The position numbers and the translations under genes were made by a program. The notes beneath the pieces were generated by a model that was given only the letters and a program-made list of their open reading frames with translations, did no database searches and had not been told where the DNA came from. Below are positions 7,620-61,669 of a stretch of 64,000 nucleotides of DNA, one piece after another; the first letter of the stretch is position 1; each line of letters opens with the position of its first letter. Source of the DNA: Eledone cirrhosa (taxonomy: Eukaryota); contig OZ024752.1 in assembly GCA_964016885.1 (NCBI GenBank), positions 34,286,001 to 34,350,000 of the forward strand, given 5' to 3'.

Positions 7620-8375
7620 CAGTATACTCAGCTGAAAATGAGTTACCAACGGCAATAGCTGGGGATTTAACCCTGCGATTTCTTGGCCTCATGTTCAGGG
7701 AGAAGGCTTGTACTCTCAGTCGCTTCACGATATAGAAACTGGGATAAGCACTGGGCTGATGAGCTTTTGAGCTTGAGACTGATTTTAACCTTGTGATGGA
7801 CTGGTACCCTGTCTAGGGAGGAGTCTTGTACTCTCTGTCATTTCACGCCTCGGAAACCGAGATAAACATTAGTCTGATGAACTTTTAGGCTTGAAATAGA
7901 CTTTAAACCTGTGGTGGACTGGCACCCTATCTAGGGGGAAGTCTTATACTCTCAGTCACTTCACATCACGTAAATCGGGATAAGCACCCGGCTGATGAGA
8001 TTTTGAGCTTGAGACTGACTTTAACCCTGTGATGGACTGGCGTCCTGTTCAGAGGGAAGTCTTGTACTCTTAGTCGCTTTACATCACCGAACCCTAGATA
8101 AGCACTAGTCTGATGAACTTTGGGGCTTGAAACTGATTTTAACCCTGTGATGGACTGGAACCCTGTCCAGGGGGCAGTCTTGTACTCTGTCACTTCACAT
8201 CACCGAACCCTAGATAAGCACTAGTCTGATGCCTTTGGGGCTTGAAACTGATTTTAACCCTGTGATGGACTGGAAACCTGTCCAGGGGGATGTCTTGTAC
8301 TCTGTCACTTCACACCACGTAAATCGGGATAGGCGCTAGTTTGATGAGCCTCCGGATTCGAGACAGACTTTACAC
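7620..8375 (+). repeat. Degenerate ~120-bp tandem array of a SINE body (V-domain-like)
   Basis: ~6 repeats of ccctgtgatggactggc..cctgtccagggg...cgggataagca; resembles the V-SINE conserved domain (from memory). Confidence 0.6.
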
Positions 8376-17888: not shown

Positions 17889-17984
17889 AATGAAGTAATT
17901 CCGTCGAAAAAGTCCAGGAAAAAAGAGTGCTCTATGTAGGTAACAGAGCTTAATAGTTATGTAATAAACAACATAAGGCAATTA

Positions 17985-18044
17985 TTCCATTTACCAGTGG
18001 TTTCTTAAAAGCAAAAAATTTTGCTTTCAATCCTCAGAATGAAA
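17985..18044 (-). ncRNA. Type-I hammerhead ribozyme (inverted copy)
   Basis: Reverse complement of 18111-18170 apart from stem II loop changes. Confidence 0.8.
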
Positions 18045-18110
18045 AAATCCTGGTCTGTTTAATGAATTTGGATTTTTAAAAATCCAAATTCAATAAACAG
18101 ACCAGGATTT

Positions 18111-18170
18111 TTTCATTCTGAGGATTGAAAGCAACATTTTTTGCTTTTAAGAAACCACTGGTAAATGGAA
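18111..18170 (+). ncRNA. Type-I hammerhead ribozyme
   Basis: TTTCATT CTGAGGA TTGAAAGCAA catttt TTGCTTTTAA GAAA CC act GG TA AATGGAA. Confidence 0.82.
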
Positions 18171-18195
18171 TAATTGCCTTATGTTGTTTATTACA

Positions 18196-18242
<47 letters not shown>

Positions 18243-27541: not shown

Positions 27542-28333
27542 AACGAGAAGGCTGGTCTTAGGAACGTTATATAAAGAAAACTCTTTGGATAATATATGTA
27601 AAATATAATAGATATATAATAGATATATAATAGATATATAATAGATATATAATAGATATATAATAGATATATAATAGATATATAATAGATATATAATAGA
27701 TATATAATAGATATATAATAGATATATAATAGATATATAATAGATATATAATAGATATATAATAGATATATAATAGACATATAATAGATATATAATAGAT
27801 ATATAATAGATATATAATAGATATATAATAGATATATAATAGACATATAATAGATATATAATAGAAATATAATAGAAATATAATAGATATATAATAGATA
27901 TATAATAGACATATAATAGATATATAATAGATATATAATAGATATATAATAGATATATAATAGATATATAATAGATATATAATAGATATATAATAGATAT
28001 ATAATAGATATATAATAAATATATAATAGATATATAATAGATATATAATAGATATATATTAGATATATAATAGATATATAATAGATATATAATAAATATA
28101 TAATAAATATATAATAGATATATAATAGATATATAATAGATATATAATAGATATATAATAGATATATAATAAATATATAATAGATATATAATAGATATAT
28201 AATAAATATATAATAGATATATAATAGATATATAATAGATATATAATAGATATATAATAAATATATAATAGATATATAATAGATATATAATAAATATATA
28301 ATAGATATATAATAGATAAATAATAGATATATA

Positions 28334-29119
28334 ATAAAAACAAATAACGAAACGAAATTAAATTTCGTTTCGCTTCTAACTCACTTTTGTATGACTGACG
28401 CTTAAACAATTAAGTTAAAGTGTACATCTACATATGTATACGGAAGTATTAGTATGCATATAAATACACACATGTATACATATGTACATGTACTGAGTTT
28501 TTCACGTCTGTGTGGTTACATACAGACTAGCTGACACTCACTGTAAAGTGTCTAGTGAAAAACTCAGTACATGTACATATGTATACATGTGTGTATTTAT
28601 ATGCATACTAATACTTCCGTATACATATGTAGATGTACACTTTAACTTAATTGTTTAAGCGTCAGTCATACAAAAGTGAGTTAGAAGCGAAACGAAATTT
28701 AATTTCGTTTCGTTATTTGTTTTTATCGTTTCCGCTGAACCGGTGCGTACAATGACTCACGTTCTATGCAAATTAGTCTACCCACTACTAATTTTCATAG
28801 AAAAAGCATATAACGATATGTGCTTTTACAATTCTCCAGAGAAGCCGGAAGATGGGTAAATATTGCTGATGAGATGTAATAACATCGAAACTAGTCCAAT
28901 ATTCCTGTCTGGCTCTCTGGAGAATAGAGGAAATGTGTTTCCTTGAAAACTCGTATGATTCTAAAACCCGGTCCGTCTGTGTGGTTACATACAGACTAGC
29001 TGACACTCACTGTAAAGTGTCTAGTGAAAAACTCAGTACATGTACATATGTATACATGTGTGTATTTATATGCATACTAATACTTCCGTATACATATGTA
29101 GATGTACACTTTAACTTAA
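28334..29119 (+). mobile_element. Non-coding hammerhead element with terminal direct repeat (469-bp period) and inverted 5' segment
   Basis: 28505-28650 = 28974-29119; 28334-28505 is the reverse complement of 28556-28726; hammerhead at 28859-28903. Confidence 0.85.
28859..28903 (+). ncRNA. Canonical minimal type-I hammerhead ribozyme
   Basis: AATATTG CTGATGA GATGT aata ACATC GAAA CTAG TC CAATATT; GUC site; stem I extends (attctccagaga.agcc / ggct.ctctggagaat). Confidence 0.9.
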
Positions 29120-30223
29120 TAGATATATAATAGATATATAATAAATATATAATAGATATATAATAGATATATAATAGATATATAATAGATATATAATAGA
29201 TATATAATAAATATATAATAAATATATAATAGATATATAATAGATATATAATAGATATATAATAGATATATAATAGATATATAATAGATATATAATAGAT
29301 ATATAATAAATATATAATAGATATATAATAAATATATAATAGATATATAATAGATATATAATAAATATATAATAGATATATAATAGATATATAATAGATA
29401 TATAATAGATATATAATAAATATATAATAGATATATAATAAATATATAATAGATATATAATAGATATATAATAAATATATAATAGATATATAATAGATAT
29501 ATAATACATATATAATAGATATATAATAGATATATAATAGATATATAATAGATATATAATAGACATATAATAGATATATAATAGATATATAATAGACATA
29601 TAATAGATATATAATAGATATATAATAGATATATAATAGATATATAATAGACATATAATAGATATATAATAGATATATAATAGATATATAATAGATATAT
29701 AATAGATATATAATAGATATATAATAGATATATAATAGACATATAATAGATATATAATAGATATATAATAGATATATAATAGACATATAATAGATATATA
29801 ATAGATATAGAATAGATATAGAATAGATATATAATAAATATATAATAGATATATAATAGATATATATTAGATATATAATAGACATATAATAGATATATAA
29901 TAGATATATAATAGATATATAATAGATATATAATAGATATATAATAGATATATAATAGATATATAATAGATATATAATAGATATATAATAAATATATAAT
30001 AAATATATAATAGATATATAATAGATATATAATAGACATATAATAGACATATAATAGATATATAATAGATATATAATAGATATATAATAAATATATAATA
30101 GATATATAATAGATATATAATAGATATATAATAGATATATAATAGATATATAATAGATATATGATAAATAGTTATCTAAAACAACATCACGTAATAAAGA
30201 AAAACAAGATATTATTTTTAAAA

Positions 30224-43035: not shown

Positions 43036-43082
<47 letters not shown>

Positions 43083-43225
43083 ATTAAAATACTGGAGCGT
43101 GTTGGAGTTAAACACCCTCTTCGTATTATAGAAATGACAGTAAAAGGTATAGCTCAATGTAGTTAAACAGAGCCGAAGAATTATGAAAATAAAACAAAGA
43201 AGCCTTCAATACATCAAAAGTCTTT

Positions 43226-43270
43226 ATTAGCCAACAATGTTTCGTCCTATTAAGGACTCATCAGGGCAAT
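43226..43270 (-). ncRNA. Minimal type-I hammerhead ribozyme in the loop of inverted repeat 43181-43340
   Basis: attGCC CTGATGA GTCCT taat AGGAC GAAA C att G TT GGCtaat. Confidence 0.8.
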
Positions 43271-43454
43271 TAAAACAACAACATTGTGAGCTAATAAAGA
43301 CTTTTGATGTATTGAAGGCTTCTTTGTTTTATTTTCATAATATATATATATATATAGTGGTAGAACACTGGAAGGTAATATCCGTAGTGGTAGAGCACTC
43401 AGTCCATGGGACGAGTTAGGTGGAAGTGGTTACACAACAGTTAGTTCACCATAC

Positions 43455-43492
43455 CGAGAACAATTGTTTCACCTTAGCGGTTCCTCAGCTCG
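43455..43492 (-). ncRNA. Minimal type-I hammerhead ribozyme (left arm of palindrome 43423-43638)
   Basis: CGAG CTGAGGA ACC gctaa GGT GAAA CAATTG TT CTCG. Confidence 0.8.
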
Positions 43493-43568
43493 TAATGGAC
43501 ATGGTTATACGGAACAGGAAGGACAATCGTACGGCTGTCCTTCCTGTTCCGTATAACCATGTCCATTA

Positions 43569-43606
43569 CGAGCTGAGGAACCGCTAAGGTGAAACATTTG
43601 TTCTCG
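43569..43606 (+). ncRNA. Minimal type-I hammerhead ribozyme (right arm)
   Basis: CGAG CTGAGGA ACC gctaa GGT GAAA CATTTG TT CTCG. Confidence 0.75.
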
Positions 43607-43635
43607 GTATGGTGAACTAACTGTTGTATAACCAC

Positions 43636-43760
<125 letters not shown>

Positions 43761-56108: not shown

Positions 56109-59100
56109 CTACAGGCTGAGGTAGAGAGAAGGCCCATTCACACGGGCCATTCTCGCAACTTTCACCCACCTTTCATAAAACTGGCTGGAGTGGAGCACCT
56201 CTCTCTCCATCCTGATCCTTCTTCCGAAATGGTATCGGAAGAAAAGGACCAGTTGTTGGCCGGAGAGAAAGGTGTCCGACCTCAGCCCTTTCAGACGCGT
56301 CCACCATATAGCCTCTTTTACCATGGCTATTACACAGAGGAAGACCGCCTCTCCTTCATTTTTGAAGGGGGGAGGCGGCTTGATCGTTACAATGGACTCG
56401 GTGGTCAACCTAATTGGTCCCACCCGTGACAGCAGTTGTTCAACATAGCCCCACAGATCGGCAACGCCCGGGCAGTGCACCAATGCGTGCGCGACGGTTT
56501 CCTCGTCGCGCACGCATCTGGGACAGATCTTTCTCGAGGGGTCCCTACCCGGGCGCCCGTGTCTGTAGAGCTTATCCCGAACGGGCAGAGCCCCTCGGTA
56601 GCACTGCCAGGCCAAGGACTTCTGGAAGTTGTCCATAGGTCCCGGGCCGAAAGTCCTACCGAATAGACTGGCCAGTTCGTCCTCCTCCATGCCTAGGGCT
56701 TCTCCGAGGGCGTCGTCGCACCCGCTAACCACCAGCCCTCTATAGAATGACGAGGTGGAGTCTCCGTCGATAGCCGGGTCCGCCTGCCAGAGAGCCGTGA
56801 GCGCCTGGGCACACTCGGTGTGCCAGTCGCCCAGTTTTCTCGGTCTTTGCTTCACCCAGGACTGCAGCTCGGTGAGCGAGACGAGCCTCGGGAAGGCTCG
56901 CCTCACAAACGGGGCCCACACCGGTTGACCGGTGAGGAATACGTGGAGGTGCCTTAGCCTCAATGCGTGTTTACGCATTTTTAGCCACGGCATCCCCAGC
57001 CCTCCTTTCAAAGGGTGTTGACAGCAGATGGATCTCCTCACTAGAGGAGACCTCTTCTTCCAAAGGAAATAAAAGAGGGCGCGCTCCATTTTGGCGAGGA
57101 TCTCACCCGGGCAAGGTACGACAGTCAAGCGGTAATAGATGACGGACGCTATGTAAGCGTTCGCCACCTCCGCCCGACCTTTTAGGGATAGTTTGCACTC
57201 GGCCCACTTCTGGGTCAGTGCAAACACCCTATTCGTCACCTCACCCCAGTTTTTCTCCACCTGGAGGTCCGGTCCGAACCAGACCCCAAGCAACTTCACC
57301 GGGCCCTCCGTCCACCGTCCGACGATACCGTCGCACGACATCGCTTTGCCCCTCCACTCGCCGAGTTGCAAAGCGACTGACTTGTCCCGGTTCAGCTTAG
57401 CCCCTGTCAACCTTTCGTACTCCTCTAGTAAGGTGCCGATTGCCTCGATTTCCGAGGCGGTCGACACCATTACCGTTACGTCATCGGCGTAGGCCGACAC
57501 CGCTTTGCGCAATCCCGGTTCCAAAGGGATGCCCTGCAACAACTACAACTTCCGCAGTAGTGGCTCGAGAGTCAATACATACAGAAGGGAGGAGAGAGGG
57601 CACCCCTGTCGGATGGAGCGGGTGATTTCGAACGGCTCCGAAAGGTAGCCGTTCACCTTGATTCTAGAGCAGATGCGGCTGCTGTGCATGGCAGTGATCC
57701 AGCCCCTGAAAACGGGTCCGAACCCAGCCGCCGCTAGCACCGCATCCAGGTAACCATGGTCCACCCTATCGAACGCTTTAGACTGATCTAAATTTATCAG
57801 GGCCCCACCAAAGCCGTGTTCGTTCCCAACCCTCTCTATGATGTATCGCATGAGGTGGAGGTTGTCGTGGATGGACCTGGACGGGATAGCGCATGTCTGC
57901 GCATCTCCCACCAGGCCCCCCACGACAAGCGCCAACCTCTTCGCTAACACCTTCGCCAAAATCTTTAACTCTGCATTTAGCAGAGTTATGGGCCTAAAAT
58001 TACTAATGTCATCCCCCTTGTTCTCGTCCTTCCTCACTAGCGAGACTACGCCCTTGGTCACAGAACAGGGAATTCTCCCGTTCTGTTGCCAGTTGCAGTA
58101 GACCGCCTCGAGGAGATCGGGGAACAAGTCCGGCATATTAATATATAGTTCGTAGGGCAGACCATCGAGTCCTGGAGATTTGCGTTTGCCGCATAGGCTC
58201 AGCACGTCCCCTATTTCAGCAGCTGAGATCGGCCCGTCGCAGGACCTCGCCTCCCTGTCCGAAAGACGCGGCAGGCCGTCGAGGTATGGACCGAAATCCA
58301 CATCTCCAACCGGCTCCCCGCCCCTCCCGAACAATTGGGCAAAGTGCCTTTGAAAGGCCTCGCACATTTGCTTAGGTTCAAGGATCAGCCGTCCATCCTG
58401 GTCTCGCAAAGACCGGATAGTGGATTTAATCCCACTTTTCGCTTCTGTCACGCGGGCCCAGCTAACAGCTTTGGTCCCCTCGTTTCCCAGAGCACGTATT
58501 TTGCTTCGGACAACGCAGCCTTCGTGTTTCGCGTCGAAGAACTGGTTCAAGACCGTTCTCGACGCTTGCACTCTGGCCACGTTGCCGCTTCTCATTGCCT
58601 CTTCAACATTAACTACCAACTCCCTTTCCTTCCTATTTCTATCTGAGGCTAACTCCTTACTAACTCCTATTGAAACTACTCTAATCTCTCTTTTTAGAGA
58701 GCCCCACCACCTGTTGTTGACGATGGCGCCCGTCAACTGCTCCTTAACTAAGGTTCTAATCCGGTCCCTGTAAGCTCTACTTGCCGGTAAGGACAAGTTG
58801 AGCTTCCAGTAACCGGGCCCCTGCCTATGCGTTCTATCAAGGTGGACTACGCAGGTCACTAACTTGTGGTCTGAATAGCCCACCATGAGCATTTCTGGAC
58901 AACTTAAAAAGTCCCTATCCTTAATTCTAACTAAGAACCTATCTAGGTACGATCTAGATTGACCACTGTTATTTGACCAGGTCCAGGTTGGTACAGTCGG
59001 AAAATCTAGTCGGTATCTATCGGCCAGGTCGAATCGGCCGATTAACCCCTTAAGGCTGTTACACCCCCCTCTATCGGGACATGCCCCTACATAGTCCCAA

Positions 59101-59546
59101 CGTGCATCTAGGATACCATTCCAGTCCCCCACTAAAAGCAAGGAGCGGGACGTCCCTAGAAAAGTCTCCAGACGATGGAAGAAGTCCGACCGCATTGCCC
59201 CAAAAGGGGCGTATACGGCGACAAGCCTAAAAGCTTCGCCTTCGCCATTGCCAAGGTCCAGAACCACGAGTCGACCCTCCGGGTCCAAGTGTACCGTCTG
59301 TGTAGCGAGACCCAGATGTTTTTGCAGCAGAACGACAACCCCACCCCCACCTCCAGGCTGACAGAGAGATGCGTGCATCTCAAAGTCATCAAAGGTGGGG
59401 GCTAGCTGTCGCATGCTGCTGATCCGGGCCTCGCAAATAACCATCACATTTACACATTGTGACCCGAGGTCACTTAGAAGTTTAGCTTGCTTCCAAGGTG
59501 AGCCCAGGCCACGCGCATTTAGACAACCTACTCTTAAGACAGCCAT
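56109..59546 (-). pseudogene. LINE ORF2 (APE endonuclease + reverse transcriptase + C-terminal Zn finger) broken by one in-frame stop at 57543-57545
   Basis: APE motifs LNARGL, GDWN, SYLDRF, SDHKLV; RT motifs FRPITLLN, DQSKAFD, RQGCPLS, YADD; CPRC..ETVAHALVHC; TAG here versus GAG in copy 2. Confidence 0.95.
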
Positions 59547-59569
59547 GTTGGTGGCAAAGAAAGAGGCAC

Positions 59570-61327
59570 TTACCTCTCTGCATCCCGGGGTTCGGGTCGC
59601 TCAGTTTCCATGGGGCTGGTGGAGGGGTTGATGGGTGGGGTGGTGGTTTGTGGTGGTGTGGGGGTATTAGTGTGTGGAGGGGTTGGGATCTTTGGAGTTG
59701 TGTGGGTGTTTGAGGAGGGGAGGGGAAAACCTTTCAGGAGGACGCGGTTGAGTGGCCTGGTGCAGGGTGGGCCCACGTCCTCAGGGTACATGTCTTTTAA
59801 AGTTTTAAAAATGTCAAGTGGGATTTTCACCATTTTCAGGTTAGGGAGCACCATTGCCGTTACGAAATTCGGCCCTTCGGTTTGTATCGAAGGGTTGGTT
59901 TCTATTTTTAAAGTTAGGTTTTCATTGTTTTTGTTTATGTATGTGTAGAGTTTTTGTGTTGTTGTGTTTGTTTTTGCTTGTTGTTGTTGAGTGAGTTTGC
60001 GTTTTATTGTCTGTGTTGTGTTGTCAGGTGGGGTTATTTTTGTTGTTGTGGTGTGTGTACGTTTTTTTCTTTTCACTTTTTGGAAGGGAGCCCCCTCGTC
60101 TTCCGACGATATGAGCTCCTCTTCCGTATTGGAGGGGAGGGGTATATCTCCGGGTTGTGTATGAACTGTTTTTGTATTTGTGTTCTGTGGGGTGGGGCTG
60201 GGTGGGACCGTGTTTTGGGTTGTTTTCTTGAGCTGTTGTTGATGTTGTTGTTGTTGTTGTGGTGGTGGTGGTGTTGTTGTTGGTTTTTGTTGTTCTGGTG
60301 GAGATGGTAGTGTATTTTGTTGTTTTTGTGATGGTGGTGCTGGTTGTTTTTGTTGTTGTTGTGGTGTTTGTAGCAGTGGTTTTTTAGTTGTTAGTAGAGG
60401 GCAGGCCATCCTCAGGTGACCTCTGCCAGCGCAGTGGTAACATGAGGGTCTCCTGCCTTCCACTGTGATATTTATGTAGGTTCGCCCATCCAGTAGCACT
60501 CGGTCGGGTATTCCGGAGATTCTCTCAGGTGTCATCTGTAAGAGAACCTCCAGACTTTTCCCCCCGAACAGTCCACTGGTGGACTCCCCTGCTGAAATTA
60601 GTATGTCCTTATCTAGGTCGGTAAATCCTGTTAGGACGGACCAGATGTTAATTTCTGGCGTAGGGCTCCACATTCTTATCCTTTGTGTTCTTCTTCCTTT
60701 ATATGTGGGGAAGAAGGTGTAATGTGGTGACACTATAGGTGCCACCGAATATTTCTGAGCCAGCATTTCGTCCTTCATTCGGACCATAATGCTGGCATAC
60801 AGCTTTCCTCTTTGAATAAAGAGTATGTCATTTTTAATTTCTTTCAGAACCAGCTTGATTTGACTTTCGGTCAATTGCGCTGGCTTTCTCGTTTCGTTGG
60901 TTATGGTTCTGTAGCTTACGGTATTCTTGTAAATCTGTTCACGCACTTCTTCTGGGGAGTTGATCGTAAAAGAACCATCCTCCCCAAAAGATACGTATTT
61001 TCTAGCCTCTAGCAAATTTTCCTTGGCGTTCGTGATGTCAATGGCTTTGTATTCCGTGGCTCTCCTAAGTGTTTGGGCAAAAGAAATTTTGTCTTTGTTT
61101 GTTGTTGTAATGTTGTTGGTTTCCTTATTTGTGGTGCTATTTTTTTCTTGAAAATTAATTTTTTCATTTGAATTGAAATTCTTTTTTTCATTGGAGAGGA
61201 GGGGTTGTTCAACAGTTTGAACTGTTGTTCCCTCTTTCCCGCTTGTTTTTTTGGTCGGCGTGGCGTTCGCTTCCAATATGGCGATATCGTTTTCGACGAT
61301 ATCGTTATCAACGATATCGATAAACAT
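59570..61327 (-). CDS. LINE ORF1 protein (585 aa) with CCHC zinc knuckle and Q/P/T-rich low-complexity region
   Basis: CYHCAGRGHLRMAC = CX2CX4HX4C; lies upstream of ORF2 with a 23-nt gap. Confidence 0.88.
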   Translation of the reverse strand: MFIDIVDNDIVENDIAILEANATPTKKTSGKEGTTVQTVEQPLLSNEKKNFNSNEKINFQEKNSTTNKETNNITTTNKDKISFAQTLRRATEYKAIDITNAKENLLEARKYVSFGEDGSFTINSPEEVREQIYKNTVSYRTITNETRKPAQLTESQIKLVLKEIKNDILFIQRGKLYASIMVRMKDEMLAQKYSVAPIVSPHYTFFPTYKGRRTQRIRMWSPTPEINIWSVLTGFTDLDKDILISAGESTSGLFGGKSLEVLLQMTPERISGIPDRVLLDGRTYINITVEGRRPSCYHCAGRGHLRMACPLLTTKKPLLQTPQQQQKQPAPPSQKQQNTLPSPPEQQKPTTTPPPPQQQQQHQQQLKKTTQNTVPPSPTPQNTNTKTVHTQPGDIPLPSNTEEELISSEDEGAPFQKVKRKKRTHTTTTKITPPDNTTQTIKRKLTQQQQAKTNTTTQKLYTYINKNNENLTLKIETNPSIQTEGPNFVTAMVLPNLKMVKIPLDIFKTLKDMYPEDVGPPCTRPLNRVLLKGFPLPSSNTHTTPKIPTPPHTNTPTPPQTTTPPINPSTSPMETERPEPRDAER

Positions 61328-61669
61328 TTCTCAAATATTTATTTTTCACCCCAAAAGGGGTGAAAATATATTTACCCGACGTCTAGAGTCCCAGACTAGG
61401 GGTTACAGTTAATTATACAAAAGAATTCAAAAAAATCCACTCACAAAATTAGCAGGTAAAAATCCAAATCACGGAGCGATATGACACACGTCTACTATCC
61501 TCAGACAGACAGACAGACAGATAGACAGGCAGATAGGGAAGATGTAAGTAAGCAAAGACACCTGACCAACCTTGCCTCAAGTGGCACAACTCCCGTCTAA
61601 CACAGACAGACAGACAGACAGACAAACAAACAAACAGACAGACAGACAGACAAACAAACAGACAGACAG

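Follow-up and report, generated by a model that had tools for sequence, protein, structure and literature searches.

The window analysed here is a 64,000-nt stretch of the Eledone cirrhosa genome (assembly GCA_964016885.1, contig OZ024752.1, forward-strand positions 34,286,001 to 34,350,000). At 28334-29120 of this window, an element interrupts an 11-bp TA-rich satellite, ATATAATAGAT, that spans 27603-30170, as a preliminary description of this DNA had stated, and the right part of the satellite (29121-30170) is in phase with the left part (27603-28333). The element is made up of two 5'-truncated arms that meet at an inversion centre at 28505 with an overlap of 1 nt. Arm B (28334-28505, minus strand) is 172 nt long and covers unit positions 50-221, counted from window position 28506 as position 1, and its outward 3' end at 28334 is the fixed site B of the family described below. 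Arm A (28505-29120, plus strand) is 616 nt long, that is, one full unit plus 146-147 nt, and has its outward 3' end, the fixed site A, at about 29120. Arm B is the exact reverse complement of 28555-28726 over 172 nt, and 28505-28651 recurs at 28974-29120 over 147 nt with 0 mismatches at an offset of 469. Both repeats had been described before with borders that differ by one nucleotide (146 nt for the direct repeat, 28556 for the start of the inverted partner). Between 28334 and 29119, no frame stays free of stops for more than 82 codons, in keeping with the earlier view of the element as non-coding. The tetranucleotide TAAT at the outer end of arm A is common to element and satellite, and a target-site duplication is unreadable at this copy because the target is a satellite.

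The reference frame of the 469-nt unit (28506-28974, plus strand) is non-coding, has a G+C content of 36% and is strongly self-paired, with a circular minimum free energy of -158.4 kcal/mol compared with -92.5 +/- 5.4 kcal/mol for 30 shuffled sequences. An internal copy of the tail (28651-28726, plus strand) extends for 70-75 nt from site A (28651-28657) to site B (28724-28726), and each of the two sites falls within a TTAWTTGTTT motif or directly behind one. Upstream of site A there is a long TA-rich hairpin (28574-28631, plus strand), and a perfect 12-bp hairpin (28688-28712, plus strand) stands just upstream of site B, to which a hairpin of a sister family is related. Rfam microRNA matches, far under their gathering scores, track TA-rich hairpins.

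A type I hammerhead motif is located at 28859-28903 on the plus strand, with a GUC triplet and a predicted cut after C28896, that is, after unit position 391. Its parts are stem I (28859-28865/28897-28903), CUGAUGA (28866-28872), stem II (28873-28877/28882-28886) and GAAA (28887-28890), and in the predicted fold an extended stem I surrounds it over 28831-28925 (plus strand), with a perfect 12-bp helix between 28831-28842 and 28914-28925. No Rfam family matched within the window at its gathering score; under an E-value threshold, Hammerhead_HH9 matched 28847-28919 with 32.4 bits (E 3.7e-6; gathering score 52). The motif had been called a perfect GUC hammerhead, and its core is indeed complete with GUC at 28859-28903, but helix III falls short of this, because GAAA is followed by CUAG-U-C, which leaves one A-U pair capped by a palindromic CUAG loop. 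Folding energies were -0.5 kcal/mol for the monomer with helix III closed and -6.4 kcal/mol with it open, so that closing costs about 6 kcal/mol, and a strand-swapped double hammerhead reached -17.8 kcal/mol compared with -12.8 kcal/mol for two open monomers (2 x -6.4). Since helix III consists of just one base pair, cleavage is predicted to be likely to need a dimer. The axolotl hammerhead HHR_Amex1 has the same helix III, with one pair and a palindromic tetraloop, and cleaves well only as a dimer (PMC7229834).

We aligned ten hammerhead rows from the subfamilies and the sister family. In these rows, 93% of stem cells were paired, 6 of the 13 pairs were changed on both sides, and the core was invariant except at the free position 7, with GUC, GUU or GUA as the cut triplet. 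At the sequence level, the paired changes support selection on the hammerhead fold, with a statistic that is not strong because the ten rows are related and represent two or three lineages. Over 147 units, each with a type I hammerhead, the core columns showed 15 changes, and the exact core pattern matched 4,084 times in the genome.

The unit belongs to a family with at least 379 matches in its own genome (3.0 Gb), a figure obtained from 40 scored of 927 candidates. An exact pattern of the B end followed by ATAT matched 2,239 times in the genome and 0 times in a reversed control. Insertion ends of the 469-nt family number at least 2,239 and are dispersed, mostly at TA-repeat sites; the A-end count of 761 is not comparable with the B-end count, because the T-run in its pattern misses the subfamily of the window itself. 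The first 30 B ends on contig 1 were 86-100% identical to the window unit, and these identities place the window copy as a young subfamily member among older subfamilies.

Tandem arrays of the family show a period of 469 nt, with spacings of 461-470 nt occurring, and range from 2 to about 31 units. An array of about 31 units (L148-L149, G000:C1:5738300-5752700) has units of 461-467 nt, higher-order variant blocks and an inverted B arm at its end. In a 30-unit array, 15 variants were shared and 6 were singletons, in repeating blocks; array length was therefore rejected as proof of rolling-circle copying. From these repeating blocks and from variants that are patchy within loci, long arrays were either expanded as DNA or copied from mixed multimers.

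We also observed a sister retrozyme family (L138:6870-8001, L092:2700-3090, L104, L112 and L040). Its unit is 511 nt long in L138, its cut triplet is GUA and its inverted arms lie in (TA)n; helix III is the same palindromic one as in the 469-nt unit, and stem I and a hairpin are related to those of that unit. At unit positions 414-417 (window 28919-28922), many different substitutions cluster across loci, a possible hot spot of reverse transcriptase (RT) error. The unit is present in three public runs whose kind is unrecorded (X2, X3 and X7), carrying three different organism codes; run X7 holds a version of the unit with 25 differences and a shorter period, and an older subfamily dominates in run X3.

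To map insertion ends, we used 37 loci from the genome match list together with the window, picked for full-length, high-identity units (38 loci, 63 arms of at least 100 nt). The 3' ends of the 63 arms fell at unit positions 145-152 (site A) in 33 cases, at 219-221 (site B) in 29 and at 199 in one. Two fixed sites, spaced by about 70 nt, thus account for 62 of 63 arms, and the inner (5') ends are scattered across the whole unit. The copies had been expected to be circular permutations or multimers of a single 469-nt monomer. They are multimeric tandem units, but with fixed ends they are not permutations. Likewise, the length of about 1.3 units had been read as the signature of a circle, and it is merely the stopping point of the A arm in the window; arms in the 38-locus sample range from 0.3 to 14.7 units.

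In inverted insertions, the 3' ends always point outward. The position-sampled loci were added for the junction counts, and L110, L114 and L120 were dropped from the junction and target counts as duplicates of L065, L066 and L064. Among 41 inverted junctions, 33 joined an A arm to a B arm and none joined two A arms or two B arms; four of the remaining eight were cut by the edge of the locus, one contained filler with A and B as its outer ends (L048), one was an alignment artefact (L062) and two had irregular ends (L053 and L064). Fifteen of the 41 junctions came from loci chosen by their B end, and the A+B arrangement was found in 22 of the 26 from loci not chosen in this way. In five loci that appeared single-armed, an inverted A arm is present but very short. 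Which of the two arms is longer varies: it is A in L055 (A 6,621 nt, B 801 nt) and B in L036 (B 3,309 nt, A 1,230 nt). At the centre, the arms overlapped in 26 junctions, were blunt in 6 and were separated by filler in 9. The window copy, with its 172-nt B arm, its 616-nt A arm and only one hammerhead, is a plain example of the family.

DNA resembling (TA)n adjoins 90 of 99 3' ends. Target duplications are unreadable in pure (TA)n; a copy outside microsatellite DNA (L052) has one of 13 bp, in the range of more than 4 bp given for non-LTR retrozymes where a duplication is present, and L063 has a 29-bp candidate.

This footprint is that of Penelope-like elements, which are known for (TA)n targets, inverted 5'-truncated partners and a tail that in many cases is present at just one of the two ends (Craig 2021, PMC8557442). 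In vitro, the Penelope-like protein of Poseidon PAc cuts and extends both strands of AT-rich DNA (Frangieh 2024, PMC11167929). The same study reports that synthesis begins at two positions inside the RNA, one at each border of the tail, that the protein is predicted to be a dimer, and that hammerhead cleavage is dispensable for insertion, a Penelope-like element of anole having mainly used uncleaved RNA (PMC11167929).

GIY-YIG matches are abundant in the Eledone genome (150 scored of 10,595 candidates), with ORFs containing RT and GIY-YIG among them. As a control, we used a young coding family with RT and GIY-YIG, of which at least 89 scored copies besides the query showed 94-96% amino-acid identity to it, with open frames of up to about 900 aa and more and a hammerhead-like motif. 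This family has (TA)n targets and two ends 40-44 nt apart; of 30 ends, 16 were short, 11 were long, one ran on and two were without the motif. One long and one short end were present in 7 of 7 inverted insertions, which were picked from the copy list as close opposite-strand pairs. The A+B rule of the retrozyme is thus the long/short-end rule of a coding Penelope-like family in the same genome, and it matches the published two-site initiation by Penelope-like RT. Because its back-to-back copies end at two fixed points as those of Penelope-like elements do, Penelope-like elements likely copy the 469-nt unit, and we consider its dependence on them highly probable.

The helper itself was sought by sequence similarity. 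With blastn at a word size of 7, no unit-like sequence was detected in 50 GIY-YIG loci plus another 30 copies of one family; matches to coding Penelope-like loci were limited to TA-rich stretches and to neighbouring retrozyme insertions. Homology of the unit to the pLTR of a coding element was not found in the GIY-YIG loci compared, which were drawn from the 150 scored of 10,595 candidates. In a single case (L179, G000:C2:375833169-375837596, minus strand), downstream of the ORF, a coding Penelope-like 3' region passes through a few shared bases into sister retrozyme sequence and on to a TA-flanked end. This could be a template switch between two RNAs, or a later insertion with a deletion; a template switch, if true, would point to the helper. 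Besides the control family (the L138 type), we observed at least four further young families of GIY-YIG ORFs (L128/L129/L133/L136/L137/L139; L131/L132/L135/L141/L143; L134/L140/L142; L130/L144). Many of their members end in (TA)n and some are tail-out inverted pairs, and L128 has a CxxC cluster before the GIY-YIG motif.

The kind of element described here is already known. A type I hammerhead is set in non-coding, low-G+C tandem units, and the 469-nt family has the sequence-level features of a non-LTR retrozyme, in support of the preliminary view of a retrozyme-like, multimeric unit that moved recently. It resembles metazoan non-LTR retrozymes in its tandem non-coding unit with less than 45% G+C, in one type I hammerhead per unit, in copies that range from dimers to long multimers, in a self-paired monomer and in co-occurrence with Penelope-like elements (PMC7229834; 10.64898/2026.07.22.740005). 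With 469 nt, the unit is slightly above the range of 150-450 bp in PMC7229834 and within that of 51-972 bp in 10.64898/2026.07.22.740005. Most invertebrate retrozyme hammerheads cleave well as monomers (10.64898/2026.07.22.740005; PMC7229834), whereas that of the window family is predicted to depend on a dimer. Fixed A and B ends, tail-out inverted pairs and (TA)n targeting are not described for retrozymes in the accessible text of PMC7229834 and 10.64898/2026.07.22.740005.

The family shares with endonuclease-bearing Penelope-like elements two 3' start sites that bound a tail at one end, an inverted 5'-truncated partner arm, partial tandems, AT-rich or (TA)n targets and a hammerhead upstream of the start sites (PMC11167929; PMC8557442). 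It differs from them in a unit that is without an ORF and only 469 nt in total, in a long stem I, and in a tail of 70-75 nt, compared with 30-40 nt reported for Penelope-like elements and 40-44 nt in the control family. We rejected an autonomous Penelope-like element, as the unit has no RT or GIY-YIG ORF and all 30 position-sampled B ends lead into family units and none into an ORF. Fixed termini of a long coding Penelope element had been named as the finding that would speak against the preliminary reading, and half of this applies: the ends of the copies are indeed fixed and Penelope-like, yet what they delimit is a tandem unit without coding capacity. The non-autonomous Penelope-like elements of Chlamys (MRC1; PMC8557442) are similar as non-coding, multicopy, head-to-tail insertions made by Penelope-like machinery. 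However, elements of this type resemble their autonomous family at the 3' end and belong to a clade without canonical hammerheads, whereas in the 469-nt unit the hammerhead is conserved and no helper was matched to it among the loci compared. Plant LTR retrozymes are likewise hammerhead-bearing non-autonomous retroelements with a circular RNA stage, but with a type III hammerhead, LTRs, PBS/PPT, a 4-bp target duplication and a Gypsy helper (PMC7229834; 10.64898/2026.07.22.740005). A plant-type LTR retrozyme was ruled out here by the type I topology, by tandem units without an internal region and by the 13-bp duplication.

To investigate the RNA template, we compared the arms and their variants. 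Of 30 position-sampled B arms, 23 extend beyond the cleavage site and 12 do so a second time, so the main template was something other than cleaved linear monomers. Inner ends lay within 10 nt of the cut site in 8 of 95 cases compared with 4.2 expected (P = 0.06); run-off from cleaved linear monomers was accordingly not significant and may at most be a minor route. Variant counts left out both arms of the older L035 insertion, arms below 100 nt and indels, as well as 8 nt at 3' ends and 15 nt at 5' ends (60 nt for L056 and L062). The arms of one insertion share 24 minor alleles (18 of 23 loci), compared with a mean of 2.4 and a maximum of 12 for shuffled pairs (10,000 shuffles), which indicates that both arms come from one molecule or one source. 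Given this sharing and the read-through of the cleavage site, the template is mostly a circle or an uncleaved multimer.

In register, over 22.9 overlapping units, the two arms had 29 shared variants that were array-wide, 3 that were shared and unit-specific (two in L036, one in L053) and 71 differences that were unshared. Eight variants in seven loci were present in every unit of their own locus and absent from the other loci sampled, a pattern predicted for a bottleneck of one monomer; these variants are private within 38 of more than 2,000 loci. Another 21 variants were patchy, being confined to part of the units at their locus, for the most part in long arrays, and in L065 a variant was present in both units of one arm and absent from the other arm. 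The patchy variants, the three in-register variants and the L065 pattern do not fit a single circle. In published work on coral, mussel and axolotl, circles are the dominant form of retrozyme RNA (PMC7229834). On the other side, cleavage failed in 8 of 9 dimers of Xenopus retrozymes (10.64898/2026.07.22.740005). From the variant patterns and the published abundance of circles, we modestly favour a circular RNA template over a linear multimer. Of seven public runs listed for the unit, none is recorded as RNA, which speaks neither for nor against expression, and contigs from four of them were compared with 28652-29030; the run guessed to be RNA gave no match. Self-closing contigs of 499 and 497 nt, one in each of two runs, were discarded as evidence of circles because tandem DNA gives the same. 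In one run of unrecorded kind, 12 of 657 contigs run into (AT)n at site B; the run thus holds genomic junctions and was not taken as evidence of RNA.

Taken together, we consider it rather probable that the element is a hammerhead-containing 469-nt non-LTR retrozyme, likely inserted in trans by a Penelope-like RT/endonuclease and probably from a circular monomer RNA. Tandem copies would be transcribed, and two units would fold together into a double hammerhead, with cleavage after unit position 391. A host ligase would close the monomer, and the resulting circle would stay mostly intact because its hammerhead is weak and has no partner. A Penelope-like protein, which probably acts as a dimer, would then nick both strands of a TA-rich target, with one cDNA primed at site A and the other at site B of the same RNA or of sister RNAs. 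Each cDNA would extend for a variable distance, often more than one unit, and the two would be joined head to head by microhomology or filler end-joining; long arrays would be reshaped afterwards by DNA-level duplication. In a more specific version, which we put forward tentatively and rate as somewhat short of an even chance, a single 469-nt circle serves both arms, with one Penelope-like dimer priming both strands of the TA break at two internal sites and rolling independently for each arm.

The same Penelope-like machinery and start sites could also act on an uncleaved linear read-through transcript of a tandem array, with a hammerhead that is weak or later-acting and new arrays homogenised as DNA. 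This possibility, which we regard as doubtful but serious, accounts for all data on ends, targets and read-through, and it fits the three in-register unit-specific variants, the patchy variants of long arrays, the weak helix III and the dispensability of hammerhead cleavage in vitro (PMC11167929). However, with about 1.2 single-unit variants per unit, heterogeneous multimers should give many in-register unit-specific shared variants, and only 3 were found over the 22.9 overlapping units, compared with 29 that were array-wide. The hammerhead, moreover, is conserved with paired changes across the subfamilies and the sister family, and the dominance of circles in other animals (PMC7229834) speaks against a linear template as well.

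In the preliminary description, a cDNA started at an arbitrary point of a circle, was extended for 1.3 turns and then folded back, and at this locus alone the short arm does look the part, as an exact inverted copy 49 nt from its partner. Its inverted arm, however, starts at fixed site B, and across the sample all ends but one of 63 are fixed and either arm may be the longer. The 71 in-register differences unshared between the arms, against 3 unit-specific shared variants, mean that one arm was not copied from the other, and fold-back offers no explanation of the rule of one A and one B end; we consider it very improbable. An ordinary LINE acting by twin priming, or spread purely as a satellite through recombination or extrachromosomal DNA circles, seems unlikely too. 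LINE-type RTs are present, one of them inside the window, and the long arrays do show DNA-level duplication. Priming by a LINE, however, leaves a single 3' end that is fixed and a second priming site that varies, and DNA circles leave permuted ends. In this family each of the two outward ends is fixed, with the tail as the difference between them, and the coding Penelope-like control shows the same.

Penelope-like helpers for retrozymes were proposed in 2020 (PMC7229834; PMC7761336). According to a 2020 review, animal retrozyme repeats show no motif that indicates a helper (PMC7761336), and a 2026 preprint supports Penelope-like helpers by co-occurrence and pLTR homology (10.64898/2026.07.22.740005). 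In a literature search that covered subscription journals thinly and left supplements outside, we found no paper on the 469-nt family or on an A/B end rule for retrozymes. The insertion footprint is a supporting mechanism and not a new system. Its bearing is on which enzyme moves animal retrozymes, as a young, high-copy family here carries the insertion signature itself, with one start site per arm. The signature ties a retrozyme to Penelope-type two-site priming and gives the exact start positions, and the family is a large natural data set on the origin of Penelope-like inverted insertions and tails. If the single-circle version is true, these insertions would be the genomic footprint of target-primed reverse transcription on circular RNA. 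Circles would then be retrotransposable at all because internal initiation needs no RNA 3' end, and a hammerhead that works only as a dimer would make circles from multimers and then spare them.

Several other features of the window were observed. A LINE-type element at 56109-61330 (minus strand) has an ORF without a Pfam match followed by an endonuclease (Exo_endo_phos), RT and zf-RVT, split by a stop. Small inverted insertions between (TA)n runs are located at 43345-43640, with hammerhead-like motifs at 43488 (minus) and 43573 (plus), and at 43080-43340, with one at 43264 (minus); these two insertions look like other Penelope-type remnants. At 17890-18200, an inverted repeat between TA-rich runs has loose hammerhead-like motifs at 18037 (minus) and 18118 (plus). 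Further CUGANGA...GAAA motifs occur at 1264 (plus), 20663 (minus), 45834 (minus), and 7874 and 8110 (both plus), the last two within a 118-bp tandem repeat at 7692-8349.
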